From the NCBI GenBank assembly GCA_963835985.1, contig CAWIHV010000001.1:953524-1017523 (forward strand): DNA of 64,000 nt. Direction: 5' to 3'. The notes beneath the pieces were generated by a model, which was given only the letters and a program-made list of their open reading frames with translations, searched no databases and had not been told where the DNA came from. Below are positions 29,409-47,295 of the stretch, piece after piece (positions within the stretch are counted from its first letter, which is position 1; every line of letters begins with the position of its first letter). Source of the DNA: an uncultured Actinomycetes bacterium. Lineage in GTDB: Bacteria; Actinomycetota; Acidimicrobiia; IMCC26256; DASPTH01. A program made the position numbers and the translations under genes.

Positions 29409-30103
29409 CCCGCGTGCTCGTGGTCGACGACGAACCCCAGATCCTGCGTGCGCTCGGCATCAACCTGCGCGCACGGGGCTACGAGGTCGATCTCGCGCCC
29501 GACGGCGAGCACGCACTGACCCTGGCGGCCAGCCACCATCCCGACGTCGTGGTGCTCGACCTCGGGTTGCCCGGCATCGACGGCGTCGACGTGATCCGTG
29601 GCCTCCGCGGGTGGAGCACGGTGCCGATCGTGGTGCTGTCGGTGCGCGACGGCGAACCCGACAAGGTCGCCGCGCTCGACGCCGGCGCCGACGACTACGT
29701 GACCAAACCGTTCGGCATGGACGAGCTGATGGCGCGACTGCGTGCCGCGCTCCGGCGCGCCGCGCCGGCCGAGGAGGCGCCGGTCGTCGTGACCCCCGAC
29801 TTCACCATCGACCTCAGCGCCAAGCGCGTGCACCGGCGCGGTCAGGAGGGCGAGGACGAGGTGCGGCTCACGCCGACGGAGTGGCACATGGTGGAGGTGC
29901 TCGTGCGCAACGAGGGCAAGCTCGTGTCCCAGCGCCAATTGCTCCAAGAGGTGTGGGGCCCCGAGTACCACGACGAGACCGCGTACCTCCGCGTCCACAT
30001 GGCCAACGTGCGACGGAAGCTGGAGCCCGAGCCCAGCAAGCCGCGCTACTTCCACACGGAACCCGGTATGGGCTACCGCTTCGAGTCGACCGTCACCACG
30101 TAG
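29405..30103 (+). CDS. kdpE: Response regulator KdpE (OmpR family)
   Basis: VVDDEPQI, LDLGLP, DDYVTKPF, YLRVHMANVRRKLE, TEPGMGYRF. Confidence 0.96.
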   Translation: MTRVLVVDDEPQILRALGINLRARGYEVDLAPDGEHALTLAASHHPDVVVLDLGLPGIDGVDVIRGLRGWSTVPIVVLSVRDGEPDKVAALDAGADDYVTKPFGMDELMARLRAALRRAAPAEEAPVVVTPDFTIDLSAKRVHRRGQEGEDEVRLTPTEWHMVEVLVRNEGKLVSQRQLLQEVWGPEYHDETAYLRVHMANVRRKLEPEPSKPRYFHTEPGMGYRFESTVTT

Positions 30104-30664
30104 TCGCCGCCATCCAGGAACGGCGCGCGGTCCCACGTGGCGAACCGGGTGACCGGCTCGAGTCCGGCGGCCGCGGCAGCGGCGTCGTACTCCGCGAGCG
30201 AGAGACGGCCGGTGAGCTGGAAACCGGCGATGACCAACCCGCCGGGCTCCGCACGCGCGGCGACGTTCGCCAGGACGTCGGCTTCGGTGCCCTGAGCGAC
30301 GAAGATCATCACGTTGCCCGCGAGCACCGCTGCCGCGAACGGGCCGGGCGCGGTCGTGCCGGGGAGGGCGGCGAGGTCGCCGAGATGCCATTCGAGGTCG
30401 GGGGCCTTGGCCCGCGCCCGGTCGAGGAGCGCGGGATCGACGTCGATCCCGACCGTCGCGTACCCCTGTCGGGCCAATTCGACCGCCACTCGTCCGGTGC
30501 CACACCCCGCATCGAGCACCGGGCCGGGAGGATCGACCAGGGCGGCGACGAGGGTGGCTTCACCGTGCACGTCGGAGCCCGCAGCCGGCGAGCTCCTCCC
30601 ACTGCCGGTCGTAGCGGTCGGGGGTCAGTGGCACCCGGCGGATGCCCGGCTCAGTGCCGTCCAC
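30073..30664 (-). CDS. Class I SAM-dependent methyltransferase (N-terminal frameshift at about 30585)
   Basis: HGEA, VLDAGCGTGRVA, LAGNVMIF; upstream frame YDRQWEELA. Confidence 0.85.
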
Positions 30665-30813
30665 GGACGAGAGTCCACCACGGTTCGGTGGCGTCGGTCA
30701 CACGCGGGGACGAGTCGCCCGAAATGCGTCAAGAAACCGGCGTCGAAGGCCGTTGACCAGCAGGAACGCGGGACCCGGGCTGTGGGGACCCGCATGGCCA
30801 GGGGGCCTCGGAT

Positions 30814-31137
30814 ATGGCGCAGACGACGGTGTTCTCCTGTTCCATCGCCCGGCACGCCGGTGACGTGGACATCGAGGTGATCGGTGCGATGGACCGGAGC
30901 TCAGCAGGGCAGTTCCGCAACCAGCTCCTCACGCTGGCGAAAGAGCACCCGGCGACGATCGCCATCCACATGGATGACCTCGCGCTGATGGACTCGTCGT
31001 GCGTGGCCGTGCTGGTGGAGGCGTGGCGCTTCGCCGAGGAGCACGGGATCGCGCTCACCGTGAAGTCGCCGGCGGCGTCGATCCGTCAGGTGTTCGACGT
31101 GGCCGAATCGGGTCGCCTCCTCACTTTGCGGCACTGA
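30814..31137 (+). CDS. STAS-domain anti-sigma factor antagonist
   Basis: GAMD..LALMDSS..L motif, 107 aa. Confidence 0.85.
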   Translation: MAQTTVFSCSIARHAGDVDIEVIGAMDRSSAGQFRNQLLTLAKEHPATIAIHMDDLALMDSSCVAVLVEAWRFAEEHGIALTVKSPAASIRQVFDVAESGRLLTLRH

Positions 31138-31206
31138 CCGGGAACTTTCCCGCCCCTGGGGTCGACTCATCGCTCGACACCGGTTCACAAGAGGGGTGGG
31201 AGATCA

Positions 31207-31755
31207 GTGAGGAAGATTCGTCTCGTCGTGCTCGCCGCGCTCGTCGCGGGCGTGGTTGCCATGGCTGCGCTTCCAGCCGCTGCGCACGTGAGCATCACGC
31301 CGTCGAGCGCGCCCAAGGGCGGGTTCGAGGTCCTGAGCTTCAACGTGCCCAACGAGGAGCAGGGCGCCAACACGGTGAAGCTCGAGGTCACGTTCCCGAC
31401 CAAGAACCCCATCGCGTCAGTGAGCTACCTGCCGATGGCCGGGTGGGACGTCGCGGTGGAGACGACGAAGCTGGCCAAGCCGGTGCAGTCGGACGACGGC
31501 GAGGTCACCGAAGCGGTGTCGAAGATCACCTGGACCGCCACCGCCGGCGGGCTCGCGCCCGGCCAGTTCGAGCTCTTCACCATCTCGGCGGGTCCACTTC
31601 CGACCAAGCCCAACAAGCTGACGTTCAAGGCGATCCAGACCTACGACAACGGCGAGGTCGTGAGCTGGATCCAGCAGACGGTGAAGGGCGCACCCGAACC
31701 CGAGCATCCCGCTCCCACCCTCACGCTCACGAAGGCGGAAGCGGATCACCACTGA
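31207..31755 (+). CDS. YcnI (DUF1775) family secreted copper-binding protein
   Basis: Signal peptide AAA-HV, FNVPNE, ITW, FKAIQTYDNGEVVSW, EHPAP. Confidence 0.9.
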   Translation: MRKIRLVVLAALVAGVVAMAALPAAAHVSITPSSAPKGGFEVLSFNVPNEEQGANTVKLEVTFPTKNPIASVSYLPMAGWDVAVETTKLAKPVQSDDGEVTEAVSKITWTATAGGLAPGQFELFTISAGPLPTKPNKLTFKAIQTYDNGEVVSWIQQTVKGAPEPEHPAPTLTLTKAEADHH

Positions 31756-31858
31756 CTCGCGACACCCGGGCGAGGATCCGGCTTCGCCGGGCCTCGCCCG
31801 CAGGGACGGAGCGAACGGCAGTGAGCGAGGGAGGCAGGGCGTGTGGTGAGATGCCCGG

Positions 31859-34259
31859 ATGAGCGAGCGTCTCCTGCCCCTGTCCGGTCTGCGCGTGGTC
31901 GACTGCACCGTCGAGCGCGGTGAGCTGACCGCCCGTCTCCTCGGCGACCTCGGCGCCGACGTCGTGAAGGTCGAGCCCCCCGGCGGTTCGCCGGCACGAC
32001 AGCTGGCTCCCGTACGCGACGGCGTGTCGTTGGCGTTCGCGGTGCGCAACGCGGGCAAGCGCGGCGTGGTGCTCGATCTCACCGCCGCCGCCGCCCTCGA
32101 TCGCTTCCACGATCTGCTGGCTCACGCCGACGTGCTCGTCACCTCGAGCGCCGAAGTCGCGCCCGGCCTCGACGCGCGTGACGTCGCGGCGCGTCACCCG
32201 CACCTCGTGGTGGGTGCGCTCACGCCGTTCGGGCTCGACGGCCCGTACGCCGACTGGGTCGCGACCAGCGCCACGCTGTCTGCCACCGGCGGCATCGCGT
32301 TCAAGGCCGGCGTGCCCGAGCGCACCCCGATCTTCCCTCCCGGTCACCTCGTCGACGACGCGGCGTCGGTCACCAGCGCGTTCGGCCTGTTGTGCGCGCT
32401 CTACCAGCGTGAGCAGACCGGCGCAGGCCAGTTCGTGGAGGTGGCGGCCAACGAGGCGATCGCGCAGATCGCCGACTGGGCGCTGCCCAACGCCACCGCG
32501 CGCATCGAAGCGGGCTTCCCCGCGGGCGAGGTGCGGTTCGGCAACGGACCCATCTATCCGATCTTCGCCTGCAAGGGCGGCTACGTACGCCTCATCATCC
32601 TCAGCATCCGTCAGTGGCACGCGATGCGCGAGTGGCTGGGTGAACCCGACTACCTCCAGGACCCCGCGTTCGACGGCTTCATGGCCCGGCGCGAGATCTC
32701 CGAGACCGTGCTCAACCCGCTGTTCGAAGCGCACTTCGCCACCATGAGCATGGAGGAGGTGTCGGTCGAGGCGCAGAAGCGGGGCATCGTGTGCACGCCC
32801 GCGCTCACGCCGGCCGACATCATCACCAACGAGCACTTCCTCTCGCGCAACACGCTGGTGGAGTACGAGGTGGCACCGGGCGTGACCGCGCCGATCCCGG
32901 CGGGCTTCTTCGAGATCGACGGCGACCGCGCCGGTCCCACCGCTCCGCCACCGGCAGTCGGAGAGCACACCGACGCGGTGTTCGCCGACCTGGGTGAGGC
33001 ACGGGACGCGTCCGGCGCGACTCCGCGCGCCCAGGTCGTGGCGGGCGCTCCACTCGAAGGACTGCGGGTCATGGACTTCGGCCACGGCGCGGTCGGGGTC
33101 GAGGTCGGACGGCGCTTCGCGGAGTACGGCGCCGAGGTCATGAAGATCGAGTCGCGCACCTACACCGACTTCATGCGCCTCCAGCTCGGTGGTGAGACCA
33201 ACCCGTCGTTCGCGTCGTCGAGTCGCAGCAAGCTCGGGTTCGGTGTCAACGCCAAGACGCCGGAGGGCGTCGCGATCCTCCACGACCTCGCGGCGAAGAG
33301 CGACCTGGTGGTCGAGAACAACTCGACCGGCACGATGGACAAGCTCGGGATCGGGTTCGACGCCCTCCAGGCCGTGAACCCCGACCTGGTCATGGTGTCG
33401 AGCCAGCTGATGGGTTCGCACGGCGCCTGGTCGTGGTGGCGCGGATACGGCCCCAGCACCCAGCCGCCCGGGGGCCTCGTGCACCTCTGGAACTACGCCG
33501 ACACCGACGCGCCCGCGGGTTCCACGTCGATCTACCCCGACCACGTCGCGGGCTGCCTCGGTGCGGTGTCCTCGCTGGCGGCGCTGGTCGGCCGCGCTCG
33601 CGGCGTGAACCACGGCGTGCACGTCGAGGTGGCACAGGTCGAAACGGTCGTGGGGATGCTCGGCGACCTCGTCGCCGCCGAAGGCGTCGCGCCGGGTTCG
33701 GTGGTGCCGCTGGGCAACCGCAGCGAGGTCGGTGCGCCGTGGGGGCTCTACCGGTGCGAGGGCGAGGAGCAGTGGGCGGCCATCACGTGCCGTGACGACG
33801 CCGACTGGCGGGGGCTGGTGGCGGCCATGGGCGATCCCGCCTGGTCGGGCGACGCCGACCTGGCGACGGTCGACGGACGCCGGGCGCGCGCCGACGAGCT
33901 CGACGAGCGCATCGGCGAGTGGACGGCGACGCGCACCGAAGGACGACGTCGCGGCCGCGTGCCAGCGCGAAGGGGTTCCGGCGGCGCCGATGCTCACCGG
34001 CGCCGAGCAGGTGAGCGATCCGCAGTTCGAGGCCCGCGGGTTCGCGGTGAGGATCGATCAGCCCGGCGTGGGCCCGTTGTGGCTCGACGGCGGCGCCTTC
34101 CGCGGCGAGCACATGGAGGGACCCGACGTCCACCAGGCGCCGGAGCTGGGTGAGCACACGCGTGCCATCGCGCGCGACCTGCTCGGGCACGACGACGACG
34201 AGATCGACCGCCTGCTCGAGGCCGGAATCCTCGAGACCACGCCGCCGGTCGGGGGCTGA
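31859..34259 (+). CDS. Tandem-domain CaiB/BaiF CoA-transferase III (frameshift at about 33940)
   Basis: PLSGLRVVD..LGADVVKVEPP and second PLEGLRVMD..GAEVMKIE; APELGEHT. Confidence 0.9.
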
Positions 34260-34268
34260 ACGCCTCGG

Positions 34269-35408
34269 TCAGCGGCTCGAGCTGAGCACGTCGAGGAACG
34301 TCGTCGCCACGCCGCGGGCGAATAACGGTCGACCACGCGGTCGCGCGCGAGCGCGGCACGGCCGCGTGCGGCGTCCGGGATCGGCGACGACCGCGCGCAA
34401 CGTGTCGACGGCGTGATCGAGATCGGGCGCGGCCCACTGCTGGTCACGCGAGTACGACGCGAACGCGTTGTGCTCCACCGCGGTGAGCGTGTGGTCGACG
34501 AGGAACGCGTTGTCGTCGTCGAGATACTCGAGGAAGCCGCCCCACCGCGTCGCGATCACCGGGTTGCCGTAGGCGCTGGCGTCGAACGCGCCGATGCCCC
34601 AACCCTCGCCCCGCGCCAAGGTGAGGTAGCAGTCGCCCCGAGCGTGGAGCCCGGCGATGCGGTCGTCGGTCCACGTCTCGACCTCGAGGTGCACGCGGGC
34701 CGGATTGCGGAACTGGCGCACGAGGCTGGCGACCTGCCAGGGCGTGGTCCACGACAACGGGTTGGCCGCACCCCACTCGCCGGGCGGCATCTCGAGCCGC
34801 GGCCCGGTCTTCACCACGAGGACCACCGGATCGTCGGCGGTGAACGCGCGCAGGTAGGCCTCGATGGCGAGGAACACCGCCTTGCGCTCGTCCCAGCGCC
34901 CGATCGTGTAGAACGCGAAGTGCGTCGGGGTCGAGGCCGAGGCCGGCGCCGGCGTCGCCGGGCACGGGAGCTGTCACCACGTGCGGGACGACGCGCCACG
35001 GGTGTGTCCACGCCGCTGGACACGAAGACGTCACGGTTCCACTCGGTCGGCACGATCACGAGATCGGTCGCGTTCAGCAGCTCGGGCCAGTGCTGCGGCA
35101 GCCGGTCGCTCTCCCACACCGTGTGCGCGACGAACGGGCCGTCGTCGACGACCGATCGCACGAGCGGGTAGTACTCGGGCACGAGGTGGGCGACGGTCGG
35201 CGCGCCGGGTGGCGCGAGCTCGCTCGGGACCGGATCGCGCGAGAACGGGACGAGCGCGGGTGGCGGCTCCGGCGCGCGTGTTCGACCAACCCCGGTACTC
35301 GACGCGGGTGCCGTTGCCACGCACCGCCCGCACCAGCCGATCCGCGGCGTCGCCGTACCCGGTGGGCGCGTCCTCGGCGATGTAGCGAAGCGCGGCGCCC
35401 CTGGCCAC
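34269..35408 (-). CDS. GT4-like (GT-B) glycosyltransferase (several frameshifts)
   Basis: TGYGDA, HTVWESDRLP, VPTEWN, FYTIGRWDERK, GEGWGIG..GNPVIATRWGG. Confidence 0.85.
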
Positions 35409-35409
35409 G

Positions 35410-36247
35410 TCAGAAGATCCGATGGTCGGGGAGGAACCGCTGGGCGGCGAGCGCGTACGTGCTGCTCCCGGCGCGGATCCACGCCTCGTCGATCTGCTGT
35501 GCGTGCACGGCGCTGAAGTCGCGGCGGGTCTCCTCCCACCAGAGATGGGCGGCGAGGTGGATCGAGACGATGCCCTCGAGGTCGGTGTCCCGCTCCACGA
35601 GCAGGCGGCGCAAGCCGTCGGGCGTCGGCGGGAACGCGTGGAACGTGCGCTCGGGCTCCACCCGCACCTCGTCGGGATGGGCACGCGCGAGGTCGTCGGC
35701 GAGGAAGCAGCTGTGCGAGCTCCACGAGCCGTCGAGCGCGCCCTCGATGTCGTCGCGCCACCGACGCGACGTACGCCGCGCCCGGCTCGGCCATCACCAG
35801 CGCGTTCGACAGCGACGGCCGTGACGCACCCGTGCGCACGTCGAACACGTCGGCCTCCCGGCCGATGACCGCGGGTGCGTCCCAGAGCTCGACCGGTGGA
35901 GGCGCGACGAACAGCGTGTCGATGTCGGCGTACAGGCCACCGTGCGCGAGGAGGGCGTCGAGGCGCACGACGTCGGCCTGGTGTGCGTAGGAGTAGTGGC
36001 GCACCACCGGATCGTCGTACGGGAAGTCGACCACGGCCGCGACCGGCTCGACGCGTTGCAGCTCGACGAAGGGCCGGGCGAGGTCCCAGTAGAAGCCGTA
36101 CGGGAGCTCGTGGCAGTGCACCACGATGCGATCCGGCGCGACGACCGCCGCGCACGACGCGATCGCGAGGTAGTGCACGAGGTGGAACGGCTCGATCTGC
36201 GGTCGCAGGCCGAACACGAAGTGGGCGGTGCACGGGATCCGGGGCAT
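35410..36247 (-). CDS. GT32-like DXD glycosyltransferase (frameshift at about 35770)
   Basis: IP..AHFVFG, AHQADVVRL..HGGLYADID, SNAL, HLAAHLW. Confidence 0.85.
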
Positions 36248-36337
36248 GCGCGACGATGATGTGCCTGGGTCGGGTGTCCGCACCGAACGCACGGGCCCGT
36301 GATCGTAGCCAGGGGCCGCCGAGAGCCGCGCGAGAGG

Positions 36338-37541
36338 GTGGTCGTGGGCGATCGGAGGCCCGGATCCGAGGGAGCTGTGCTCGTCACGCCCCTCGCGCCG
36401 GCGCGCTCGGGCAACGGTCTGGCCATGCGGGCCGGCATGCTCTTGGAGGCGCTGGCCGGCGCGGGCCCGGTCGACGTCGTGGTCGTGCCCGTGTCGGGGC
36501 CCGCGGCCGGCGACGCATGGCTGACGGCCACCGCCCGTCGGGTGGTCGCGGTGCGGACCGGCCTGTCTCGCGACCCGCGCCGAGATCGTCGCCGCCCTCG
36601 GGGATCCGCGCGCGGCGCCAGGAGCTCCTCGAGCAGGAGCAGCTCCCGGCGCGTGCACGCGACATCCAGCCCGAGCTCGCCGAGGAAGCGTGCGCCGCGC
36701 TCGAGGAAGCGCCGTCGACCGTGGTGGCGCTCCGGTCGTACCTCGCGCCGTTCGGGACGCGACTCGCTCGGTTGTCAGAGGCGACCCGCTTGGTCGTCGA
36801 CGCCGACGACGACGACGAGGCGCTCCTGCGCGCGCAGGGCGACCAGCTCGGCGCCGACCAGCACGCGCACCTCGCCCGCCGCTGGCTCGGCGCAGGCCGA
36901 TCGCGTGCTGGCGGCATCGCCGATCGACGCCGCCGCGATGAGCGAGCGCTACGGCTTCGCGGTCGACACGCTTCCCAACGCGGTGACGCGACCGGCGACG
37001 GTGACCGACCCACCCGGCCGCGACCGGATCCTCTACGTCGGCAACCTGACCTACGCGCCCAACATCGAGGCGGTGCGCGACCTCGTCGTCGACGTGGTCC
37101 CCGCGCTGCGTGCGCTGGTCCCCGGTGTCACCGTCGACGTGGTAGGGGCACACGACGAGCGACTCGCCGATCTCGCCGGACACGAGGGCGTCAACTTCTC
37201 CGGCGCGGTGCCCGACGTGACGCCGTGGTACGCGGGTGCCGACGTGGTCGTGGTCCCGCTGCGCCGGGGCGCGGGCACGCGCATCAAGGTGCTGGAGGCG
37301 TTCGCGCACCGGCGCCCGGTCGTGGCCACGCCCGCGGCGGTCGTCCGGGCTCGAGGTCGATCGACGGCCGTTCGGTCCACCTCGGTGCCACCGCGGCGCA
37401 ACTCGCCGCGCACACCGCCCGGCTGCTCCGCCGACCCGGCGAAGCCCGCCGGGCGGTCGAGGAGGCGGATGCGGTCCTGTCCGAGCACTACCTTCTCGAT
37501 GTCGTCGTGCCCCGAGCGCCGACGGCTGCTCACCGAGTTGA
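36338..37541 (+). CDS. GT4 glycosyltransferase (several frameshifts)
   Basis: GNGLAMR, LPNAV, LYVGNLTYAPN, VPLRRGAGTRIKVLEAFA..PVVAT. Confidence 0.85.
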
Positions 37542-37588
37542 CGACGACGATCCCCCGAGAAACCCGAAGAGAACCGGAGGAACTGCCC

Positions 37589-37870
37589 GTGGCTGCCGAC
37601 CGTCCCGCCCCCGCGAACGGACTCGACGTCCACGAGGTCGAGGACGGCTTCGTCGTGTTCGACGCGTCGACCGACCGCGTCCACTACCTCAACCCGACGG
37701 CCACCGTGGTGTTCTCGCTGTGCGACGGCTCCCGCACCACCGAGGAGATCGCCGAGCTCGTGCGATCGGCGTGGGAGCTCGACGCCGCGCCGCTCGACGA
37801 CGTGACCGCGTGCATCGCCCAGCTCCGCGACGAGGGAGTGCTGACCGGGCCGTCGACGCCCGCGCGGTGA
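37589..37870 (+). CDS. Stand-alone PqqD-family protein/RiPP recognition element
   Basis: 93 aa: EVEDGFVVFD..RVHYLNPTA..VFSLCDG..EIAE..DV..IAQLRDEGVL; GGAGG RBS at 37576-37580. Confidence 0.9.
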   Translation: MAADRPAPANGLDVHEVEDGFVVFDASTDRVHYLNPTATVVFSLCDGSRTTEEIAELVRSAWELDAAPLDDVTACIAQLRDEGVLTGPSTPAR

Positions 37871-38700
37871 CGTTCGAGCGCCGCCTGCTGTGGCACTCGC
37901 TGCACGTCGACGGTGATCCGAGGGTCGTCGGCCACCTCGAGGCGCTCCTTCCCGACGCCCGCCACCCGATGCCGGCGCGGCGCGCGATGCACTACCGGGT
38001 GACCGCGACGCCCGACGGCTTCACCATCACCGAGGAAGGCGACGAGCTCGCCGACATCGCGGCAGGCGAGCGGGCGGTCGAGGAGGCCGCCGACATCGTG
38101 CACATGCGCGCGCACCGGCGGGCGTTCGAGCTCGCGTCGCTCTCGGGCTGGGCACGCGTGCACGCGGCGACCGTCGACCTCGACGGCGCGCGCGTGCTCG
38201 TGGTCGGCCCGTCGGGCGCGGGCAAGACCACGCTCGCGACCCGACTGCTCCTCGACGGGGCCGACGTCCAGGGGGACGAGAGCGTGCTCGTGCATCGCGG
38301 CGAGAGCCTCGCCGTGCCCGCGCGCTCCACCTCAAGCCCGGGAGCGATCACGTCCTGCCCGAGCTCGCCGAGGTGCTGCCCGACCCTCCCGGTGGTCGGG
38401 CGAGGTCGTCGTGCTCGATCCTGCCCGCGTCGACCACCCGGTCGAGCTCCGCTGTCGCGCCGATTGCCCACGTGGTGCTGCTCACGGGTCCGTCGTCGTC
38501 GCCTGCCCCCGTCACCTGCACGCCGGTCGACGGTGGTGCGGTGCTCGAGGCGCTGCTCACCGACGCCTTCCCGCTGACCGAGACCAAGGCCCGCATGGTG
38601 TCGGTGCTCGCAGGGGCGATGGTGGCCGCACGGGGCCACCAACTCTCGTGGGGACCGCCCAGAACGATGGTCGATGCCCTCGCGCGCCGCGATCAGGTAG
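37867..38700 (+). CDS. HPr-kinase-related P-loop kinase (frameshifts after about 38320)
   Basis: VHAATV..VVGPSGAGKTT..GDESV; GTGA-coupled to the PqqD gene. Confidence 0.82.
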
Positions 38701-38734
38701 TGTCGCGGCACTCGCTCGCAGGGAGGGTGCAGAC

Positions 38735-39034
38735 GTGTCCGAGGACTTCGAAGCCGCGACCGAGGGGCTGAGCGACGGTCGTCGCTCGTTCCTGAAGAAG
38801 ATGGCGATCGGCACCGCGTTCACGGTGCCCGTGGTCTCGTCCTTCACCATGGCCGGCATCCAGGCGGTGTACGCCCAGACGCCCACCGCGAGTGGCAAGA
38901 CGAGCGCCGGCAACGCCACCGCGACCACCTCGGCGACGACGACGCAGCCGAACTCCACCACCACGTCGTCGACGACCACGACCACGCAGGCGAACTCGAC
39001 CGTCACCACCACGGTGTCCGACAGCGGCGGCTGA
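38735..39034 (+). CDS. Candidate RiPP precursor: twin-arginine leader plus Ser/Thr-rich core (99 aa)
   Basis: GGGAGG RBS at about 38721 and GTG start; (M)SEDFEAATEGLSDGRRSFLKKMAIGTAFTVPVVSSFTMAGIQAVYAQTPTASGKTSAGNATATTSATTTQPNSTTTSSTTTTTQANSTVTTTVSDSGG. Confidence 0.82.
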   Translation: MSEDFEAATEGLSDGRRSFLKKMAIGTAFTVPVVSSFTMAGIQAVYAQTPTASGKTSAGNATATTSATTTQPNSTTTSSTTTTTQANSTVTTTVSDSGG

Positions 39035-39047
39035 CCCTGACGGTTCG

Positions 39048-40178
39048 GTGACGCTGTCGGCCGCGATCATCGTCAAGAACGAAGCCGAGAATCTCGACGC
39101 CGTGCTCGTCCTCGCTCGACGGCTTGGTCGACGAGATCGTCGTCGTCGACACCGGATCGACCGACGAGACGGTCGCCGTAGCCGAGCGACACGGCGCTGT
39201 CGTCGCCCACGAGCCGTGGCGGGGAGACTTCGCCACCCCCCGCAACCGCAGTCTCGACCTGGCGCACCGAGCGACTGGGTCTTCTACATCGACGCCGACG
39301 AGCGCGTCGAGGGCGACTTCGCCGCCACGCGGGCGCTGCCTCGGCGGCGGCCGACGACTGCGTCGCGTTCCGGGTGCGCCTCGTGCCCCGGGTCGGGTGG
39401 ACGCCGTTCCTCGAGTTCCGGCTCTGGCGCAACCGCCCCGACATCCGCTTCGCCGGCCAGGTCCACGAGTCGGTGGTGCCCGACGATCCAGACCATCGCG
39501 GAGCGAGAGCTCTTGCGGGTCGACGTCCTCGACCACTGCACCATCCGCCACTACGGCTACGAGGGTGACCGGCCCGACAAGCGTGCACGCGACGAACCGC
39601 TCCTCCTGGAGGAGATCGCCCGGAACCCCGATCGGCCGTTCGTCTACGACCACCTCGCGCGTGTCTACGAGGCTGGTGGCGACGGGCAGCGCGCGGTCGA
39701 GACCTGGAAGCGGGGGATCGCCCAGGCCCGTGCCCGCACCACCGTGCACCCCGACGATCGACTGCTCTACGTCGACCTCATCCACCACCTCCTCGCCAAC
39801 GGCGTGATCGATGACGAGTTGGAGATGCTCGTCAACGACGCACGGGGGCAGTTCCCGCGCACCCCGACGCTCGAGCTCGCCTCGGCGCGCCTCGCGTTCG
39901 CCACCGGCCGGCCGCGTGACGCGTTGGAACCCCTCGAGTGGCTGGTGGATCTCGACGACGACGCCATCCTCGCCACCGGCGCGTCGTACGACGAACGCGT
40001 CTTCGGCGAGTGGGCGTGGGCCCTGCTCGGACTGTGCTGCTTCGCACTCGGTGACGACGTCGCGGCGGCCGACGCGTTCGGTCGCGCCGAGCGCCTGGCC
40101 CCCGACGACGCCTCGTACGGCGTGCGGCGGCGTCTCGCCGAGGCCCGCGCCTCCGCTCCGACACACTCCAGTTCCTGA
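39048..40178 (+). CDS. GT2 glycosyltransferase with C-terminal TPRs (several frameshifts)
   Basis: LSAAIIVKNE, VDTGSTD, DFATPRN, IDADER, VHE, HYGY, then TPR-like helices. Confidence 0.87.
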   Translation: MTLSAAIIVKNEAENLDAVLVLARRLGRRDRRRRHRIDRRDGRRSRATRRCRRPRAVAGRLRHPPQPQSRPGAPSDWVFYIDADERVEGDFAATRALPRRRPTTASRSGCASCPGSGGRRSSSSGSGATAPTSASPARSTSRWCPTIQTIAERELLRVDVLDHCTIRHYGYEGDRPDKRARDEPLLLEEIARNPDRPFVYDHLARVYEAGGDGQRAVETWKRGIAQARARTTVHPDDRLLYVDLIHHLLANGVIDDELEMLVNDARGQFPRTPTLELASARLAFATGRPRDALEPLEWLVDLDDDAILATGASYDERVFGEWAWALLGLCCFALGDDVAAADAFGRAERLAPDDASYGVRRRLAEARASAPTHSSS

Positions 40179-40187
40179 GGCGACCGC

Positions 40188-41373
40188 GTGTCGTTCCCGT
40201 GGCACGACGCACCCTGGTGCGAGGTCGGGGACCTGCTCGAGGCTGTCGCCGACCCGGCGGAGCGGGTGCTGGCTCCCGACCCGTTCTGGTGGCGGTTCCC
40301 CACGCTGTGGCGCTACGTCCCCGCCAACCTCACCGTTGCTGCTGATGACCGCGACGCCGACTACGACTGGGTCGTCGTGCACAAAGGGGAGTTGCCCGCG
40401 ATCCGCGGGCGTTCCTGGAACACGTCGTGGCGACGATGACACCTGTCCTCGCCAACGAGGTGTTCGTGGTGTTCGCGGCGCGTGCGGGACGCACTTGCGG
40501 TCGACGCCGCGGTCACCGCATCTGCTGTCCTTCCTGAGCGCGCTCGCGCAGCTCCCCGCGGAACCCGAGGTGGAGCTGCGCGCGATCAGCGACCGCGTGC
40601 TCGAAGCGTCACCCACGCTGCGCCGATTCGGTGAGCTGACGCTGGCCGAGGCGCGCGCCGAACAGGACGCGTTCTTCACCAGCGGCGGCTACCGCTATCC
40701 GACCGCACGTGACCAGGCGTACTACACAGCGGTGCAGGCGCACCGCGATCGGGCGCTGCGGCCGGGCACGCGCGTGCTCGACGTGGCCAGCGGCGCGTTC
40801 GCTGCAGCACCGCTCCCGCCTGGAGTCACCTTCGTGCGCACCGACTTCTCGCGCGTGGGCATGGCGCAGGCGAGGGCGCGGGACGTCGACGAACCCGGCG
40901 CGCACCACGTCGTGTGCGACGGCGACGCGGTTGCCGTGCGCTCCGACGCGTTCGACACGGTGCTGTTCGTCGACTCGATCGAGCACGTCTTCGACGCCGA
41001 CGCGGTGATCGCGGAGTGCGCCCGAGCCCTCCGGGTCGGCGGGGAGCTCGTGGTCACCTTCTCGAACAAGAACAGCCTCAACCAGCTGCTCACGCGCGCG
41101 CTCGGGTACCCGACCTTCTCCACCAACCACCAGCACGTGCGCGAGTTCACCCCGGACGAGGTGTTCGCGATGCTCGACGCGCACGGACTCGACGTGGTCG
41201 ACACCGCCGGGATCGAGCTGCGTCCCTACTGGGGCGTACCCGGCATCGACCACGTCGTGCGCGACATGGTCGACGAAGACGAGGAGCTGGTCGCGGCGCT
41301 GAGCGAGCTCGGACGCCGCGCGGGGATCGAGTTCGCCTATATCGGTGTCGTGACGGCGCGCGAAGCGGACTAG
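40188..41373 (+). CDS. Class I SAM methyltransferase with N-terminal extension (frameshifts at about 40405-40490)
   Basis: VLDVASG, FDTVLFVDSIEHV, RALRVGGELVVT, HVREFT. Confidence 0.82.
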
Positions 41374-42129
41374 CCCGCGGTGATGCCGCGGTCGACCGAG
41401 AGGATGGCGCCGTGGATGCTGCGGCCCTCGTCGGACGCGACCAGCGCGAACATCGCGGCGATGTCGTCGGCCGAGCCCATCTTCCGGAACCCGGTGTAGC
41501 GACCCATCAGCTCGAAGTCGAGGTCTGCGGGGATCTCGAAGTTGCGGCTGAGCGCAGTGTCGACACCGCCGGGCGCGATCGCGTTGACGCGCAGCGGCGC
41601 CTTCGCGTACTCCATCGCCGAGCGCACGGGTGATCTGCACGATGGCGCCCTTGGTCATGCAGTAGGTCACGGTGTACGCCTGACCCATCAGCCCCGCGTT
41701 CGACGCGATGTTCACGATGTTGCCCTCGCGCTCGAGTAGGTGGGGGATCGCCGCCTGGGCGAGGAAGAAGCACGCCGTCGACGTTCACGCCCATCATCTG
41801 CCGGTAGGCGCGCTCGTCGACGTCGGGGAAGTGCTCGGCCCGCGCGATCCGGCGATGTTGCCGAGCACGTCGAGGCCACCGAACTGCTCGACGGTCGCGG
41901 CGACGGTGGCGACGCATTCGTCGCGGCTGCTGATGTCACCGGTGCGGGTCGTGACGGTGGCGCCGGCGTCGGCCACCAGCTTCGCGGTCTCGGCCAGCGC
42001 GTCGCCGTTGAGGTCGTGGGCGAGGATCTCGGCGCCCTCGGTGGCCAGACGGACCGTGACTGCCCGGCCGATGCCCGAGCCGGCGCCGGTGACCAGCGCG
42101 ACCTTCCCCTCGAAGCGTGCCTCGCTCAT
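41370..42129 (-). CDS. SDR family oxidoreductase (frameshifted)
   Basis: TGAGSGIG, NIASNAG, YCMTKG, RVNAIAPG. Confidence 0.87.
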
Positions 42130-42184
42130 CTGCGTTCCCCCTGTCACTGGTGCCGTGTGTGCGCGGGCCGTACCGTACCGCTCC

Positions 42185-43337
42185 ATGAGCGGACCTCTCA
42201 CTGGCGTCACCGTCGTCGAGCTCGCCGGGCTCGGCGCCCTGCCCGTTCGGCACGCTGAAGCTGGCCGACATGGGCGCCGACGTGATCCGCGTCGACCGGG
42301 CCGGCGAGGTGCCGGCGACGCCACCCGACCCGCCCAAGGGGTTCTCGGAGTGGGACCGCGGTCGTCGCTCGATCGGCGTCGACCTCAAGCACCCCGACGG
42401 CGTCGAGGTGGTGCTGCGCCTCGCCGAGCGCGCCGACGCGCTGCTCGAGTCGTTCCGGCCGGGGGTGGCCGAGCGCCTCGGCGTCGGTCCCGACGTCGCC
42501 CTCGCCCGCAACCCGAAGCTCGTCTACGGCCGCCTCACCGGCTGGGGCCAGGACGGCCCGCTCGCGCACAGCGCCGGCCACTCACTCAACTACGAGTCGC
42601 TCACCGGCGCCATCGGGTCGGTCGGTGCGCCCCACGGCGCGCCGGTGCCGGTGCTCCAGGTGCTCGGCGACTTCGCCGGTGGCGGTCTCCACCTCGCGTA
42701 CGGCGTCGTGTGCGCGCTGTTCGAGGCGCAGCGATCGGGCCAGGGGCAGGTGGTCGACGCGGCGATGGTCGACGGCGTGGCGTCGATCTTCTCGGTGTTC
42801 TACGGCATGGCCCGGTCGGGCATGCACACCGAGGACATCGGCACCAACCTCTTCGACGGCGGCTCGCCCTTCTACTCGGTGTACGAGACCGCCGACGCGA
42901 AGTACGTCACGCTCGCGCCCATCGAGCCGCACTTCTACGCGCAGCTGCTCGAGCAGCTCGGCATCGCCGGCGACGATCTCCCCGCGCAGTACGACCAGTC
43001 ACGCTGGCCCGAGATGAAGGAGCGCATCGCCGCCGTGGTGCGCACGAAGACGCGCGACGAGTGGGAGGCCCAGCTCTCGGGCACCGACGTGTGCTTCGCG
43101 CCGGTGTACCGCTTCGGTGAAGCCCACGAGCACCCGCACAACGTCGCCCGCGACCTCTTCGTCCCCGCGCCCGGCGGCGGTCGCCAGGTCGCGCCGGCGC
43201 CGCGCTTCAGCCGCACCGTGGCCGAGCCGGGCGATTCGTACGCCTACCCGGGCGTCGACACCGACGCGGTGCTGGGCGAGTTCGGGTTCGGCGCCGCCGA
43301 GGTCGCCAAGCTGCGGGAGACCGGCGCAGTCGCCTGA
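42185..43337 (+). CDS. CaiB/BaiF alpha-methylacyl-CoA racemase-like protein (frameshift at about 42241)
   Basis: GPLTGVTVVELAG, FRPGV, GHSLNY, GDFAGG, FDGGSPFY. Confidence 0.9.
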
Positions 43338-43358
43338 GGTGCCCGCCTGATCCGCATA

Positions 43359-43370
43359 ACGTATACACGT
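43359..43370. promoter_or_regulatory. Possible GntR auto-operator/-10 region
   Basis: ACGTATACACGT near-palindrome with GTATAC core upstream of the GntR gene. Confidence 0.4.
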
Positions 43371-43409
43371 GGCCGCGAAGCGACGGAGGAGCGCGCGGGG
43401 TTCTCCCCG

Positions 43410-44070
43410 GTGCCGCTCATCGACCGTCCCAGCAGCGGCGACCTGGTCGCGATCCACGTGCGCTCGCTGATCTTCAACGGCGAGCTGCGCCAGGGCGACC
43501 GCGTCCACCAGGACGACATCGCCCGCCAGCTCGGGGTGAGCCGCATCCCGGTGCGCGAGGCGATCATCGCCCTCGACCGCGAGGGCTGGCTGACGATCAC
43601 CCCGCACCGCGGCGCCTTCGTCCACGGACTCGACGAGGACGCGCTGCGCGACCACTACGAGCTGCTCGGGCTCGTCTACGGGCTTGGCCGCCCGCCGCGC
43701 CGTCTCGCGGACGACGCCCGATGCGCGCGGAGCGCCTGCGTGCCGCACAGCAGGCACTCGCCGCGGCCGAGACTCCGGACGAGCTGCACGACACCAACGA
43801 CGCGTTCCTGCGCACGCTGCTCGCGATGGCGCGCTCGCCGCGGTTGGGCAGCGTCATGCGCAACATGTCGACCGTGGTGCCCGGCAACTTCTTCGAGCTG
43901 GTGCCCGGCAGCGGCGCCACCAGCAGCGCGGGCGCGCGAGCATCGTCGATGCCATCGACGCGGGTGACGCCGACGGCGCCGCCGACGCGTGCGTCACGCT
44001 CCTGACCGACCAGGGCGACCTGGTGATCAAGCTCCTCGCGTCACGCGGGATGTTCGCAGCCGACAGCTGA
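43410..44070 (+). CDS. GntR/FadR-family regulator (frameshifted)
   Basis: GELRQGDR..LGVSRIPVREA..HRGAFV, plus FCD-like domain. Confidence 0.88.
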
Positions 44071-44093
44071 ACGACGTGAAACGCCGCAGCGGA

Positions 44094-44306
44094 GCGGCAG
44101 GTACAGCAAGAGGATGCCAGCAGTGACAAGCACGAGCATGCATGAGTCGATGCACGCCGCCTCGGGTGCGCTGCGCCCGGGAATCCGATCGAGCGACGGA
44201 TGCTTCCGTAGAGCATCGGACGAGTCGGAGGCCGCCCCACAACCCAAGCCCCGACTCGACCGAAGCGCCGCGGCCCTCCCAGCGGCGCTTCGGCGCGTAC
44301 CGTCGC
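44094..44306. other. Highly structured intergenic element (possible ncRNA or MITE-like repeat)
   Basis: Closing stem 44094-44104/44297-44306 enclosing several hairpins, including a perfect 12-bp stem. Confidence 0.4.
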
Positions 44307-44318
44307 CGGCACTTCTCT

Positions 44319-45152
44319 CTAGTAGCCGCGGAACTTGGGTTCGCGCTTCTCGATGAAGCTGTTGACGCCTTCTTCGCTGTCGAGGCTGCGGCCCATGACG
44401 TCGACCATCCACGCCTCTTCCTGGGCGATGGTGGCGCGGTCGACGTCGAGCGAGCGGTTCAGCAGCCACTTGTTCACCGCGTGGGCGCGCGTCGGGCCGT
44501 CGGCCAGCTTGCGGGCCATCGCGGCCACGGTGGCGTCGAGGTCGTCGGCGGGAACGACTCGGGTGACGAGACCGATCTCGTAGCCGCGCTGCGCGGTGAC
44601 GTCCTCGGCGAGGAGGATCAGCTCCTTGGCCCGCTGGAGGCCGACCAGGCGGGGGAGCAGCCACGTGCCGAGACCGTCGGCGGCCAGCGCCCGCCGGGCG
44701 AAGACCTCGATGAACTTGGCGTTCTCCGACGCGATCACGAGGTCGCACGCGAACGCGAGGTGGGCACCGATGCCCGCCGCAGTGCCCTGCACCTTGGCGA
44801 TGACCGGTACCTCGCAGTCGAGGATCGCGCTCACGGTCTTGATCGCGCCCCGCAGCATCATGCGGCGCCGGTCGCCGATCACCTCCTCGGGGGCGTCGGC
44901 CGGCCGCTCGGGCGCGTCGGGGATGGTGGTGCCGCCGCGCAGGTCGGCGCCGGTGCAGAAGAACCGGCCGGTGGCCTGCAGGACGACGCAGCGGATGGCC
45001 AGGTCCTCGTCGGCGCGCCCCAACCACTCGCCCATGCGCACGCGCTGCGCCGAGGTGAGCGCGTTGCCGGCCTCGGGCCGGTCGATGGTGATGGTGGCGA
45101 TGCCGTCGGCGACGTCGAAGCGGACGCCGTCGAACTCGTCGGAGTAGGTCAC
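44319..45152 (-). CDS. Enoyl-CoA hydratase/isomerase family (PaaG-like)
   Basis: IDRPEAGNAL, FCTGADL, AAGIGAHLA, EKREPKF. Confidence 0.92.
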   Translation of the reverse strand: MTYSDEFDGVRFDVADGIATITIDRPEAGNALTSAQRVRMGEWLGRADEDLAIRCVVLQATGRFFCTGADLRGGTTIPDAPERPADAPEEVIGDRRRMMLRGAIKTVSAILDCEVPVIAKVQGTAAGIGAHLAFACDLVIASENAKFIEVFARRALAADGLGTWLLPRLVGLQRAKELILLAEDVTAQRGYEIGLVTRVVPADDLDATVAAMARKLADGPTRAHAVNKWLLNRSLDVDRATIAQEEAWMVDVMGRSLDSEEGVNSFIEKREPKFRGY

Positions 45153-45202
45153 AGGAGCTCCAGCTCGATCGCGTCTGCGGGCCCGGGTGATCCGAGCCGG
45201 CA

Positions 45203-45216
45203 GATTGTATATTCCG
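45203..45216 (+). promoter_or_regulatory. Shared 14-bp promoter/operator motif, copy 1
   Basis: GATTGTATATTCCG; exact reverse-complement copy at 57869-57882. Confidence 0.6.
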
Positions 45217-45223
45217 TGGTCCG

Positions 45224-46479
45224 ATGAGCGACACGACGAGGGCATCATCACCGACGAGGGCGTCGAGCGACTGCGGGCGCGGGTCGGGGTGGCGGAGCCG
45301 TGGACGCGGCGTCCGCACTATCTCCGGCCGAACACCGACACGTTCCGGATCGTGGCCGAGAGCTACGGCGACGACAACCCGTTGTGGGGTGACCCGGAGT
45401 ACGCGGCGAAGTCGGTGTGGGGTGGGCCGTTGGCGCCGCCGCCGTTGGTGGGTGGCGACAGCCTGATCGGCGAAGACGAGGTCACCGCCGTCCCCGACGA
45501 CAAACGCGACCTGATGAAGGGCGATCCGCTGCGCGGGGTGCACGCGTTCTACTCCGCGAGCGCGCGGGAGTGGTGGGCGCCGCTGCGGGCGGACCGGCGG
45601 GTGTGGCGTCGCAACGCCATGGTGGCCGTGCTCGACAAGCCGTCGGAGTTCGCGGAGCGGGCGGTGCACGAGTGGTCGGCGAACGTGTTCCGCGACGACG
45701 AGGGCACCGCTGCTGTCGGGGCAGTACCGACTCATGATCCGCACCGAGCGCAAGAAGGCGCGGGAGAAGAAGAAGTACGACGCGATCGAGATCGCGCACT
45801 GGACCGAGGACGAGATCGCCGAGCTCGACGCCGAGTACGCCGCGTACCGACGCCGCGGCGCCGAGCCGAGGTACTGGGAAGACGTCGACGAGGGCGACAC
45901 CGTCGGTCCGTTGGTCAAGGGCCCGATGCTGGTCACCGACATGGTCTGTTGGCACGTCGGGCATGGGCATGGGCCTCTACGACGTCAAGCCGTTGGCGTT
46001 GGGAGTCGCGAACCGGCAGCGGATCCCGCGGTTCTTCAAGCCCGACGACCAGGGCATCCCCGATGTGCAGCAGCGCGTGCACTGGGATCCCGAGTGGGCT
46101 CGGCGTGCGGGCAACCCCACCACCTACGACTACGGCCGCATGCGCGAGACGTGGCTCATCCACCTCTGCACCGACTGGATGGGTGACGACGCCTGGCTCT
46201 GGAAGCTCGAGTGCTCGTTCCGCGGGTTCAACTACGTCGGCGACGTCCACCACCTCACCGGCACCGTCACCCGCAAGTACCTCGCCGACGGCGACCGCCC
46301 GGCGATCGATCTCGAGCTCGCAGGCCACCAACCAGCGCGGGACCGTCACCACGCCCGGCACCGCCACCATCCTGCTGCCCGTCGCGCGACCACGGGGCCG
46401 TCCGGCTGCCCGACCCGCCCGGCACCGACCTCGAGACCTCCCTCGTCGCGATCAGCGAAGCCTTCAGCCGAGACGATGA
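45224..46479 (+). CDS. Double hot-dog (MaoC/FAS1-like) acyl-CoA dehydratase (frameshifted)
   Basis: YGDDNPLW.DPEYA..APP; RYWEDV..GD; HWD..YDYG; NYVGD. Confidence 0.8.
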
Positions 46480-47294
46480 GCGCCTACGAGTCGGTCGACG
46501 GCCTCGACATCGAGCTGGCCGAGGGTGTGCTCACGCTGCGCCTGGCGCGGCCCGACAAGCGCAACGCGCTCAACGACACCATGGTCTACGCCGCCATCGA
46601 CGCGGTCGACCTCGCCGGTCGCGACGAGGCGGTGCGGGCGATCCTGCTCACGAGCGCGGGGGAGCACTTCTGCTCCGGGTTCGACTGGGTGGCCCGCAAC
46701 CAGGAAGCCAAGGAGACGGGGCAGAAGCCGCGCGCCGGCAGCATCCAGCGTCGGTTGCCGTCGCAGGCGCACCGCCTGATCCCGCTGTTGTGCACCGTGC
46801 AGGTGCCGGTGGTGTGCGCGGTGCGCGGCTGGGCCGCCGGCATCGGCCTCAACCTCGCGCTCGCGGCCGACTTCACGGTCGCCGCCACCGACGCCCGGTT
46901 CTGGGCGCCGTTCGTCGATCGCGGGTTCACCCCCGACAGCGGTGCCACGTGGTTGCTGCCGCGTCGGATCGGCGACGTGCGCGCCCGCGAGATGATCCAC
47001 CTCGGCCGGGTCGTCGACGGCGCCGAAGCGGCCGAGTGGCAGATGATCCACCGCGCGGTGCCCGTGGCCGAGGTCGACGCAACCGCAGCCGAGCTGGTCG
47101 GCACGCTGGCGAAGAGCGCCACCGTGGGACTGGGGTTGGCGAAGTGGCTCCTCCACGTGGGCGCGACGACGCCGCTCGACGAACACCTCCGCAACGAGGC
47201 GTTCGCCATGGAGCTGTCGTCCCGCAGCGACGACTTCCGCGAGGGCCTCAAGGCGTTCGGCGAGAAGCGGTCGCCCGAATTCGGCGGCCGCTGA
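46476..47294 (+). CDS. Enoyl-CoA hydratase/isomerase family
   Basis: RPDKRNAL, FCSGFD, AAGIG, PDSG, EKRSPEF. Confidence 0.92.
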   Translation: MSAYESVDGLDIELAEGVLTLRLARPDKRNALNDTMVYAAIDAVDLAGRDEAVRAILLTSAGEHFCSGFDWVARNQEAKETGQKPRAGSIQRRLPSQAHRLIPLLCTVQVPVVCAVRGWAAGIGLNLALAADFTVAATDARFWAPFVDRGFTPDSGATWLLPRRIGDVRAREMIHLGRVVDGAEAAEWQMIHRAVPVAEVDATAAELVGTLAKSATVGLGLAKWLLHVGATTPLDEHLRNEAFAMELSSRSDDFREGLKAFGEKRSPEFGGR

Positions 47295-47295
47295 G

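Follow-up and report, generated by a model that had tools for sequence, protein, structure and literature searches.

Organization of the gene cluster

The window analysed here is a 64,000-nucleotide stretch of contig CAWIHV010000001.1, from the genome assembly (GCA_963835985.1) of an uncultured bacterium of the Acidimicrobiia. Between positions 34269 and 41373 it carries a cluster of eight genes arranged in two divergent operons, which were delineated by Pfam and NCBIfam scans of stop-to-stop fragments and by tblastn with the orthologous proteins of the same-genus locus L011 (Table 1). The minus-strand operon encodes a GT4-family glycosyltransferase (GT4-left) and a GT32-like enzyme. The plus-strand operon encodes a second GT4 enzyme (GT4-right), a stand-alone PqqD protein, an HprK-like kinase, a 99-aa peptide, a GT2-type glycosyltransferase with TPR repeats (GT2-TPR) and a methyltransferase fused to a domain of unknown function (DUF-methyltransferase). 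The domain scans and tblastn thus recovered, in place, all eight genes listed in the initial annotation of this DNA.

The same annotation had claimed that the cluster lacks any enzyme defining a class of RiPPs (peptides that are ribosomally synthesized and modified post-translationally), as well as a transporter, flippase or polymerase. Indeed, domain scans of the cluster and of the flanks of the clean orthologous locus revealed no radical SAM, YcaO, lanthipeptide or lasso enzyme, transporter, flippase or polymerase, nor were a priming transferase, an exporter or a protease found in or beside the cluster by the same scans.

Table 1. Features of the cluster, with positions in the window and the evidence for each
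Feature	Position	Strand	Evidence and remarks
GT4-left (GT4-family glycosyltransferase)	34269..35396	-	tblastn of L011 orthologue, 34284-35396, frames -3/-2/-1/-3; at least 3 frames
GT32-like glycosyltransferase (Gly_transf_sug DXD region)	35413..36247	-	PF04488; tblastn in two pieces, frame change near 35760
GT4-right (GT4, stp1-like)	36371..37518	+	Glyco_trans_1_4; tblastn in pieces, at least 3 frame changes
Stand-alone PqqD-family protein, putative RiPP recognition element	37589..37870	+	PF05402; intact
HprK/P-like P-loop kinase	37864 to ~38699	+	Frame change at ~38319-38403 and another close to the end
Shine-Dalgarno-like AGGGAGGG	38721..38728	+	Read from the sequence; 6 nt upstream of the peptide GTG start
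99-aa precursor peptide, GTG start	38735..39034	+	Translation; intact
GT2-TPR (GT-A, DXD glycosyltransferase with C-terminal TPR)	39048..40178	+	Frame changes in the first third
~170-aa DUF fused to class I SAM methyltransferase	40188..41373	+	tblastn in three pieces, two frame changes

A conserved leader precedes a variable tail

The 99-aa peptide consists of a conserved leader (residues 1-47) and a Thr/Ser/Asn-rich tail (residues 48-99). The leader, which reads AFTVPVVSSFTM in the window, runs from an acidic N-region through G-R-R-S-F-L-K-K and M-A-I-G-T-A-F-T-V-P-V-V-S-S-F-T-M to A-V-Y-A/Q, where the slash marks the candidate cleavage site. Over its first 50 residues the window peptide shares 63-96% identity with its seven closest orthologues, whose tails differ in both length and sequence. 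Five residues, namely R16, R17, P32, S35 and F37, are invariant in 13 diverse leaders. At E<=1e-3, a leader profile of 13 sequences retrieved representatives of 890 clusters (50% identity), of which 102 remained at a threshold of E<=1e-10. Most leader-bearing representatives are 55-130 aa long and some reach 200-380 aa, with tails ranging from 10 aa to more than 300 aa. Within the family, these tails comprise poly-Thr tracts, PNQ(T/Y) repeats, NGS repeats, Cys-rich domains and folded-looking domains. When 143 representatives were searched with a regular expression that fixed the Pro and restricted some positions, F was present at P-3 in 125, V or I at P+2 in 139, RRxF in 130 and K at the next-but-one position in 109. 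The FxxPxV element of the leader resembles the motif [Y/W]xxPx[L/V/I/F/A], to which the RiPP recognition elements (RREs) of lasso-type systems bind. The peptide itself, either from the window or from the clean orthologue, matched no Pfam or NCBIfam family at E<=0.01.

The N-terminus had been proposed to be a signal for twin-arginine translocation (Tat), and the conserved leader resembles one, with the twin-arginine consensus RRSFLKK, an uncharged and mildly hydrophobic stretch and a plausible signal-peptidase site V-Y-A/Q. The TIGR01409 TAT_signal model matches 9 of the 13 family leaders (best E 3.2e-4), and the Tat-signal models together match 9-10 of the 13 diverse leaders. A TatC gene (PF00902, 210.9 bits) is present on another contig of the same genome (G000 C6).

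Some features of individual leader-bearing proteins differ from this general scheme. A core starting with AQ[ST], which would parallel the AQS phosphosite of linear polyphosphorylated peptides (LPP), was considered and dropped as a general feature, being found in only 16 of the 143 representatives. In the 3658-aa protein P0009, 26 separate stretches match the second half of the leader profile; this is probably a repeat resembling the PVVSSF block. Furthermore, a leader-bearing subfamily of ~80-380 aa has P-x-(F/T/V)-T-G as its last residues (L047, L069, L071; P0016, P0018-P0022, P0025, P0032, P0040, P0042 and others). Many of its members have a common ~150-aa domain, and the inspected loci are without a kinase. 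P-x-(F/T/V)-T-G may be a C-terminal sorting or processing signal.

The PqqD protein is related to lasso-type recognition elements

The PqqD protein of the window matches PF05402 with an E-value of 4.2e-9. Its clean orthologue does so with 9e-10, covering profile positions 2-67 of 67 at 39.2 bits, above the 23.4-bit cut-off. A match to lasso_PqqD_Strm (1.9e-8) was also obtained, and with a profile of 36 orthologues the best solved relative is the lasso RRE TfuB1 (6jx3, 7.8e-4). At the equivalog level the HPr-rel-A system (TIGR04352/TIGR04353) was not found, PqqD_rel_X scoring 23.5 vs 35 bits and HprK_rel_A 21.0 vs 200. The PqqD profile has a single match in the 4.4-Mb genome, but in 34 of 36 family loci the leader peptide has a PqqD homologue no more than ~10 kb away, so their co-location is more than chance.

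The predicted complex of PqqD and leader has an ipSAE of 0.42, compared with 0.00 for the best of three controls; the runs have at least 92% of contacts in common, with a partner pLDDT of at least 64. The mark used for such complexes is reached by 58 of 80 solved complexes and by 2 of 110 mismatched pairs, but at values of 0.60 or below it is reached by only 7 of the 80 solved complexes and by both passing mismatches. The prediction lends weak support to a PqqD-leader complex, and its pass may reflect memory of solved RRE-leader complexes rather than this particular pair.

The kinase has an HprK-like predicted fold

The window kinase matches Hpr_kinase_C (0.0015), HprK_rel_A (2.1e-5) and HprK_rel_B (2e-4), and its Walker A motif (G-x-G-K) and a downstream D-E-S are invariant in 22 orthologues. 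Since a phmmer search against PDB sequences returned generic P-loop matches only, the kinase was placed by fold search. With the AF2 model of the L011 orthologue (pLDDT 92.3), the top Foldseek matches are the HprK/P structures 1kkm (L. casei) and 1kkl (E ~1e-5, 1.5e-5 for 1kkm; probability 1.0; TM 0.3-0.5), followed by PEPCK. According to the model, the kinase shares the P-loop kinase fold of the HPr kinase/phosphorylase superfamily and PEPCK.

The composition of the tails differs with the presence of the kinase. The median Thr fraction is 0.32 and the median longest Thr run 5 in the kinase-positive loci (n=23), vs 0.075 and 1 in the kinase-negative ones (n=12). The kinase-positive set takes in loci with a different set of glycosyltransferases (L072, L075, L076, L079 and L091).

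GT2-TPR most resembles glycosyltransferases that act on polypeptides

Domain matches were obtained for all four glycosyltransferases and for the methyltransferase. The C-terminal fragment of GT4-left matches Pfam Glycos_transf_1 (1.9e-8), and the GT32-like enzyme matches PF04488 (5.8e-6 for the window, 1.2e-7 for the clean orthologue). GT4-right matches Glyco_trans_1_4 (4.9e-20); its clean orthologue also matches TIGR03087, the stp1-type glycosyltransferases of PEP-CTERM/XrtA systems, with an E-value of 2.2e-32 but at 112.7 bits, below the 316.65-bit cut-off. The DUF-methyltransferase matches Methyltransf_11 (1.4e-9 for the window, 6.2e-12 for the clean orthologue), and the scan of the clean orthologue gave no family match for its N-terminal part.

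In the case of GT2-TPR, fragments from the window match Glycos_transf_2 and TPR_2, and the clean orthologue matches PF00535 (1.7e-18) and TPR_2 (4.9e-9). Among NCBIfam models, the one for SunS-type peptide S-glycosyltransferases matches it best (TIGR04195, 5.8e-17), but at 61.6 bits vs a cut-off of 350, and the SunS relationship named in the initial annotation is only a distant one. The best PDB matches are GmaR (22ao, 1.7e-19) and then SunS (7msp, 1.8e-15), with the DXD motif (DADE) aligned. GmaR glycosylates flagellin and acts on Ser/Thr. By these sequence relationships, GT2-TPR would belong to the clade of protein- or peptide-directed glycosyltransferases. In locus L060, from a long-read metagenome-assembled genome (MAG), the peptide frame continues into GT2-TPR as one 471-aa frame (9995-11407), which could be a genuine fusion or the result of an indel error.

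The leader and the enzymes occur and disappear together

To follow the family, L011 proteins were used as search queries. Among 40 leader-retrieved loci, 36 bear the leader motif, and near the leader they have homologues of PqqD (34), GT2-TPR (29), GT4-right (27), the GT32-like enzyme (24), GT4-left (23), the kinase (23) and the DUF-methyltransferase (10). Co-occurrence of the leader motif with the glycosyltransferases and the kinase, which had been suggested as a check on the original proposal, is thus observed. One of the two PqqD-negative loci, L074, begins at a contig end. According to the locus record titles, the hosts comprise Acidimicrobiia, Microthrixaceae, Iamiaceae, Solirubrobacterales, a Gemmatimonadota MAG and the isolate Actinospongicola halichondriae. 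The genomic contexts vary between the loci while the composition of the cluster stays the same.

A comparison with 40 relatives showed the whole cluster, in the same order, in 4 of 15 same-genus genomes and a rearranged cluster in 3 further genomes. In eight relatives GT2-TPR alone occupies the same chromosomal site. Five of these eight genomes, in which GT2-TPR is flanked by the same CoA-transferase and dehydrogenase genes, were inspected: a truncated, degraded peptide remnant lies upstream of GT2-TPR in G001 (L016), G009 (L017) and G002 (L018), the peptide gene is disrupted in G014 (L014), and the G013 stretch (L015) holds CoA-transferase frames and the GT2-TPR start but no peptide gene. It looks as though the rest of the cluster was deleted at these sites, rather than inserted in the window. 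Collectively, the co-occurrence, the co-loss and the combination of a conserved leader with a hypervariable core support the earlier suggestion that the peptide is the probable substrate of the enzymes.

Within the class, a leader match at E<=0.01 was found in 20 of 401 sampled genomes. The neighbourhoods of eight strong leader matches contained the same enzyme set in six cases and none of it in one (G305), while one (G090) gave no match. Five loci show a variant architecture, with PqqD, kinase and poly-Thr peptides but other GT2-type enzymes. A gene for NTP_transf_5 lies directly 3' of the peptide gene in L091 (10144-11475), and in L019 (G018, 6910-9042) NTP_transf_5 (PF14907) is in the same open frame as GT2-TPR. 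These two cases connect the family with the enzyme repertoire of phosphorylated lasso and LPP clusters. The genome of the window has a single NTP_transf_5 gene, unlinked on another contig (L094, G000:C7:42216-42605).

The cultured isolate Actinospongicola halichondriae Hal317 (L062) has an apparently complete cluster. Two of its features are absent from the window: a small additional gene, which has an EDD motif, lying between the GT32-like gene and GT4-right (6909-7679), and ~1.1 kb without an assigned gene between GT2-TPR and the methyltransferase (11401-12696).

A proposed leader-guided modification and export pathway

The system is real and conserved, and it very probably modifies peptides or proteins. 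With somewhat better than even confidence, we propose that the cluster is a leader-guided tailoring system, that the 99-aa product is its substrate, and that phosphorylation and glycosylation in the cytoplasm are followed by Tat export. In this model, the stand-alone PqqD would bind the FxxPxV element of the conserved leader. While the substrate stays in the cytoplasm, the HprK-like kinase would phosphorylate hydroxyls of the poly-Thr/Ser tail. GT2-TPR would attach the first sugar to the peptide, both GT4 enzymes and the GT32-like enzyme would extend the glycan, and the methyltransferase would cap it. The finished phospho/glyco-peptide would then exit via Tat, and the general signal peptidase would cut off the leader, a route that would account for a cluster without a dedicated protease or exporter. 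Since the same leader also heads proteins of 200-370 aa, the system would be a pathway dedicated to the modification and export of proteins no less than one that makes small-peptide natural products.

More tentatively, in what would be a widespread maturation route not described so far, PqqD could bind inside the twin-arginine signal peptide and act like a Tat proofreading chaperone until the kinase and glycosyltransferase relay has finished, and then release the substrate to Tat. The Thr/Asn-rich tail would become a phosphoglycan-bearing, mucin-like product, and one leader would serve as recognition tag, quality-control handle and export signal. We consider this version possible but doubtful. 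If it is true, the occurrence of the same leader on passengers of 10 aa to 370 aa would define a general 'modify, then Tat-export' system, rather than a single natural product.

If leader-guided tailoring and Tat export are confirmed, peptide chemistry based on an RRE and an HprK-type kinase would extend beyond Bacillota into Acidimicrobiia and Thermoleophilia, with a defined glycosyltransferase relay added. It would also link RiPP-type leader recognition to the Tat pathway and couple cytoplasmic glycosylation and phosphorylation to export. The family is sizeable (the 890 clusters mentioned above), its cores are extremely varied, and the cultured isolate Hal317 makes it experimentally approachable. 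In abundant soil and marine actinobacteria, the products could be important to the biology of the cell surface or matrix, and the enzymes could serve as tools for peptide glyco- or phospho-engineering.

Several observations weigh against the tailoring and Tat export model. The window leader scores 13.5 bits vs the 16.7-bit TIGR01409 cut-off, the Pfam TAT_signal model matches 1 of the 13 leaders (E 6.3), and the cleavage site was judged by eye. As far as our literature searches reach, RRE binding within the hydrophobic region of a signal peptide is without precedent. The kinase falls below the cut-off of every HprK-type model (Hpr_kinase_C 18.6 vs 33.3 bits; the two HprK_rel models 23.7 and 21.0 vs 200). 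Furthermore, it is absent from 13 of the 36 family loci, so phosphorylation is not universal in the family. The relationship of GT2-TPR to SunS is distant (61.6 bits vs the 350-bit TIGR04195 cut-off), GmaR being the best solved match. The co-occurrence counts in the 36 loci come from related genomes, with several loci representing the same places, and are not independent events. In G305 (L050, C6 ~4680-7170), four tandem Cys-rich paralogues of ~150 aa carry the leader (WxxPVV), with no cluster enzymes within 17 kb. At least six of the eight cluster genes in the window are frameshifted (GT4-left, GT32-like, GT4-right, kinase, GT2-TPR and DUF-methyltransferase), and this copy could be decaying. 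Finally, Thr O-glycosylation leaves the enrichment of Asn motifs in the cores unaccounted for. Among 114 short family cores, compared with 300 shuffles, NQ occurs at 100 sites vs 23.3±4.2 and N-x-S/T at 131 sites vs 76.8±7.2 (in 82 of 114 sequences vs 51.8±4.4), these counts being inflated by repeats inside sequences and by shared ancestry.

Alternative explanations

The Asn motifs raise the question of whether Asn, and not Thr, is the main modification target. GT2-TPR or another glycosyltransferase would then read (P/A/G)-N-Q and N-x-T, by N-glycosylation or otherwise, and the Thr tracts would act as spacers or serve as targets for the kinase alone. In the same 114 cores N[QST]T is likewise enriched (65 sites vs 15.0±3.5 in shuffles), and the motifs taken as controls (Q-x-S/T, D-x-S/T and QN) are depleted. 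Enrichment of (P/A/G)-N-Q and N-x-T is found in cores P0002-P0151 and in those of L051, L058, L067, L083, L084 and L087; several cores are nearly pure PNQ(T/Y) or NGS repeats, some of them perfect (PNQY, GQNQT, NGS). NQ is present in the cores of 20 of the 29 GT2-TPR-positive loci vs none of the 6 GT2-TPR-negative ones. However, the closest relatives of GT2-TPR with a characterised function modify Ser/Thr (GmaR) or Cys (SunS), many of the motifs (PNQY, PNQP) are not N-x-S/T sequons, and the cluster is without a GT41-type N-glycosyltransferase. The inflation of the counts also speaks against Asn as the target, as does the window tail, which contains N-A-T and N-S-T but no NQ. On balance, we regard Asn as an unlikely main target.

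Equally improbable, in our view, is that the N-terminal region is a RiPP leader merely resembling a Tat signal, which an unlinked protease would remove, with the product remaining intracellular or being exported otherwise. The Tat-signal models do score near or below their cut-offs, and the conserved PVVSSF block is atypical for Tat signals. Moreover, in LPP systems the leader is removed by a dedicated peptidase with the help of the RRE (PMC13381572). Nevertheless, RRxF[LVI]K[RK] is kept family-wide (RRxF in 130 of 143, K in 109 of 143), which is hard to explain without Tat targeting. Diverse members show an uncharged stretch followed by a small-x-small site, passenger proteins of 200-370 aa bear the leader, and the cluster has neither protease nor exporter.

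The frame changes could mean that the cluster in this genome is a decaying pseudogene array without function, irrespective of the family elsewhere. There are ~12 of them in 7.1 kb, a slightly higher density than in the flanks, and same-genus relatives have lost most of the cluster. However, the whole window, of ~72% G+C, shows frequent frame changes in the GC3 frame plot. Genes outside the cluster (28000-48000, e.g. 31191-34259, 41373-42372 and 43386-44067), housekeeping-type ones included, also span 2-3 frames vs intact orthologues. Indel noise thus affects the whole window and not the cluster alone. Because the flanking genes are frameshifted too, the cluster frameshifts look like assembly noise and are probably assembly indels. 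The state of the genome (4.4 Mb in 11 contigs, completeness 78%) fits such noise, GC3 periodicity is strong in all gene pieces of the cluster, and PqqD and the peptide, alone among the eight genes, are uninterrupted.

A limited check against short reads points in the same direction. Scattered near-identical contigs from two soil-metagenome runs of one study covered shares of 0.08 and 0.05 of the stretch. The frameshift site 35265 in GT4-left, the sole one under a listed short-read contig, differs there by exactly one base, which the contig lacks. At the peptide gene, where the short-read contigs span 38703-39010, there are 0-1 differences and no gaps. In L011, which is the same place as L054 and comes from the same-genus genome G006 with its many short contigs, all eight genes are intact. 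Decay of the cluster in this genome is therefore quite unlikely.

Least probable of all is that the glycosyltransferases make a cell-envelope polysaccharide or glycolipid, with the small secreted protein as a neighbour of separate or regulatory role: the GT4, GT2 and GT32 families are known mostly from glycan and lipid pathways, GT4-right resembles PEP-CTERM/XrtA-system enzymes, and LPP and paeninodin clusters are located inside capsule loci (PMC13381572). An ordinary polysaccharide locus was nevertheless rejected: neither the cluster nor its surroundings encode a priming transferase, flippase, polymerase or exporter, the closest solved relatives of GT2-TPR are protein or peptide glycosyltransferases, PqqD accompanies the leader in 34 of 36 loci, the peptide decays where the enzymes are lost, and the cluster composition is kept across unrelated genomic contexts.

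Relationship to known peptide modification systems

The closest known system is that of the LPP of Bacillota (Popov et al., Nat Commun 2026, PMC13381572). LPP clusters lie in capsule and glycosyltransferase-rich loci, their precursors are 35-200 aa long with variable C-termini, and the authors describe them as restricted to Bacillota. The RREs of lasso and LPP systems bind the [Y/W]xxPx[L/V/I/F/A] motif (PMC13381572). In RRE-bound precursors, Ser is the target of the kinases LppK and PsmK, and hexoses go onto the phosphorylated form (PMC13381572; PMC6993621). In the case of pseudomycoidin, the kinase targets the C-terminal Ser and an NTP-transferase-dependent step then adds one or two hexoses (PMC6993621).

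Both the LPP clusters and the present one combine a discrete lasso-type RRE with an HprK-like kinase and have no macrolactam cyclase. In both, the precursors, long ones included, have a conserved N-terminus and a highly variable C-terminus, the leader contains an aromatic-xx-P-x-hydrophobic motif, and the setting is rich in glycosyltransferases. The NTP_transf_5 genes of L091 and L019 are a further likeness. On the other hand, the leader described here is a Tat look-alike with FxxPxV, whereas the LPP leader is YxxPxVLxHQxIxFETxxS, so that only aromatic-xx-P-x-V is common to the two. The SipW-like signal peptidase I, MsbA-like exporter and NTP transferase of LPP clusters are absent among the eight genes and their flanks. 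The present cluster has a fixed set of four glycosyltransferases, often with the methyltransferase, its cores are of low complexity (poly-Thr/Asn), and its hosts are Acidimicrobiia and Thermoleophilia rather than Bacillota. The cluster is best filed among RRE/HprK-kinase phospho-glyco-peptide systems, as a relative of these and not as a categorically new class. Consequently, the designation 'candidate new RiPP class' given in the initial annotation has to be narrowed, and its statement that no characterised system has this composition no longer holds in view of the LPP study.

Other systems share single elements with this cluster. Like paeninodin and pseudomycoidin, it pairs an HprK-family kinase with a PqqD-type protein, which in those systems are a kinase acting on precursor Ser, with hexoses placed on the phosphorylated form, and a B1 protein (PMC6993621). 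It differs from them in lacking a lasso cyclase, a B2 protease and an ABC exporter, and their modified C-terminal Ser has no counterpart here. A lasso peptide was rejected, as neither an Asn-synthetase-like macrolactam cyclase nor a B2 cysteine protease was found in the cluster or in ~10 kb of the clean orthologue. Bufferins and other RiPPs with Sec signals also have precursors that begin with an export signal peptide and are modified with assistance from an RRE-like partner, but there the enzymes are MNIO/DUF2063 proteins and the reported RRE motif lies outside the signal peptide (PMC11626156; PMC12710340), whereas in the present cluster a Tat-type signal goes with a kinase and glycosyltransferases. 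As for glycosyltransferases joined to an RRE, the RRE-Finder paper mentions only uncharacterised fusions. Our literature search, which left supplementary files outside its scope, found no account of an RRE binding the Tat-type leader of a natural precursor, nor of such a cluster in Acidimicrobiia.

SunS, ThuS and GmaR share with GT2-TPR a GT-A domain with DXD followed by helical or TPR repeats, and these enzymes act directly on polypeptides. The differences are that GT2-TPR lies far under the SunS cut-off, that the core here has neither Cys nor a helix-loop-helix, that a double-glycine leader and a C39 transporter are missing, and that flagellin, the substrate of GmaR, is unrelated. A glycocin was rejected, as the window peptide has no Cys and there is no C39 ABC transporter or double-glycine leader. 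In the serine-rich repeat glycoproteins of Gram-positive cocci, Ser/Thr repeats are O-glycosylated in the cytoplasm, in several steps, by GT4/GT2-type enzymes before dedicated export. Those proteins are adhesins of very large size that leave through accessory Sec and involve neither an RRE nor a kinase nor a Tat-type signal.

Flanking genes

The cluster adjoins CoA-transferase and dehydrogenase genes on its two sides. The clean orthologous locus L054 is flanked by genes for family III CoA-transferases, an SDR, a GntR regulator, enoyl-CoA hydratases and a methyltransferase, and by a histidine-kinase fragment.

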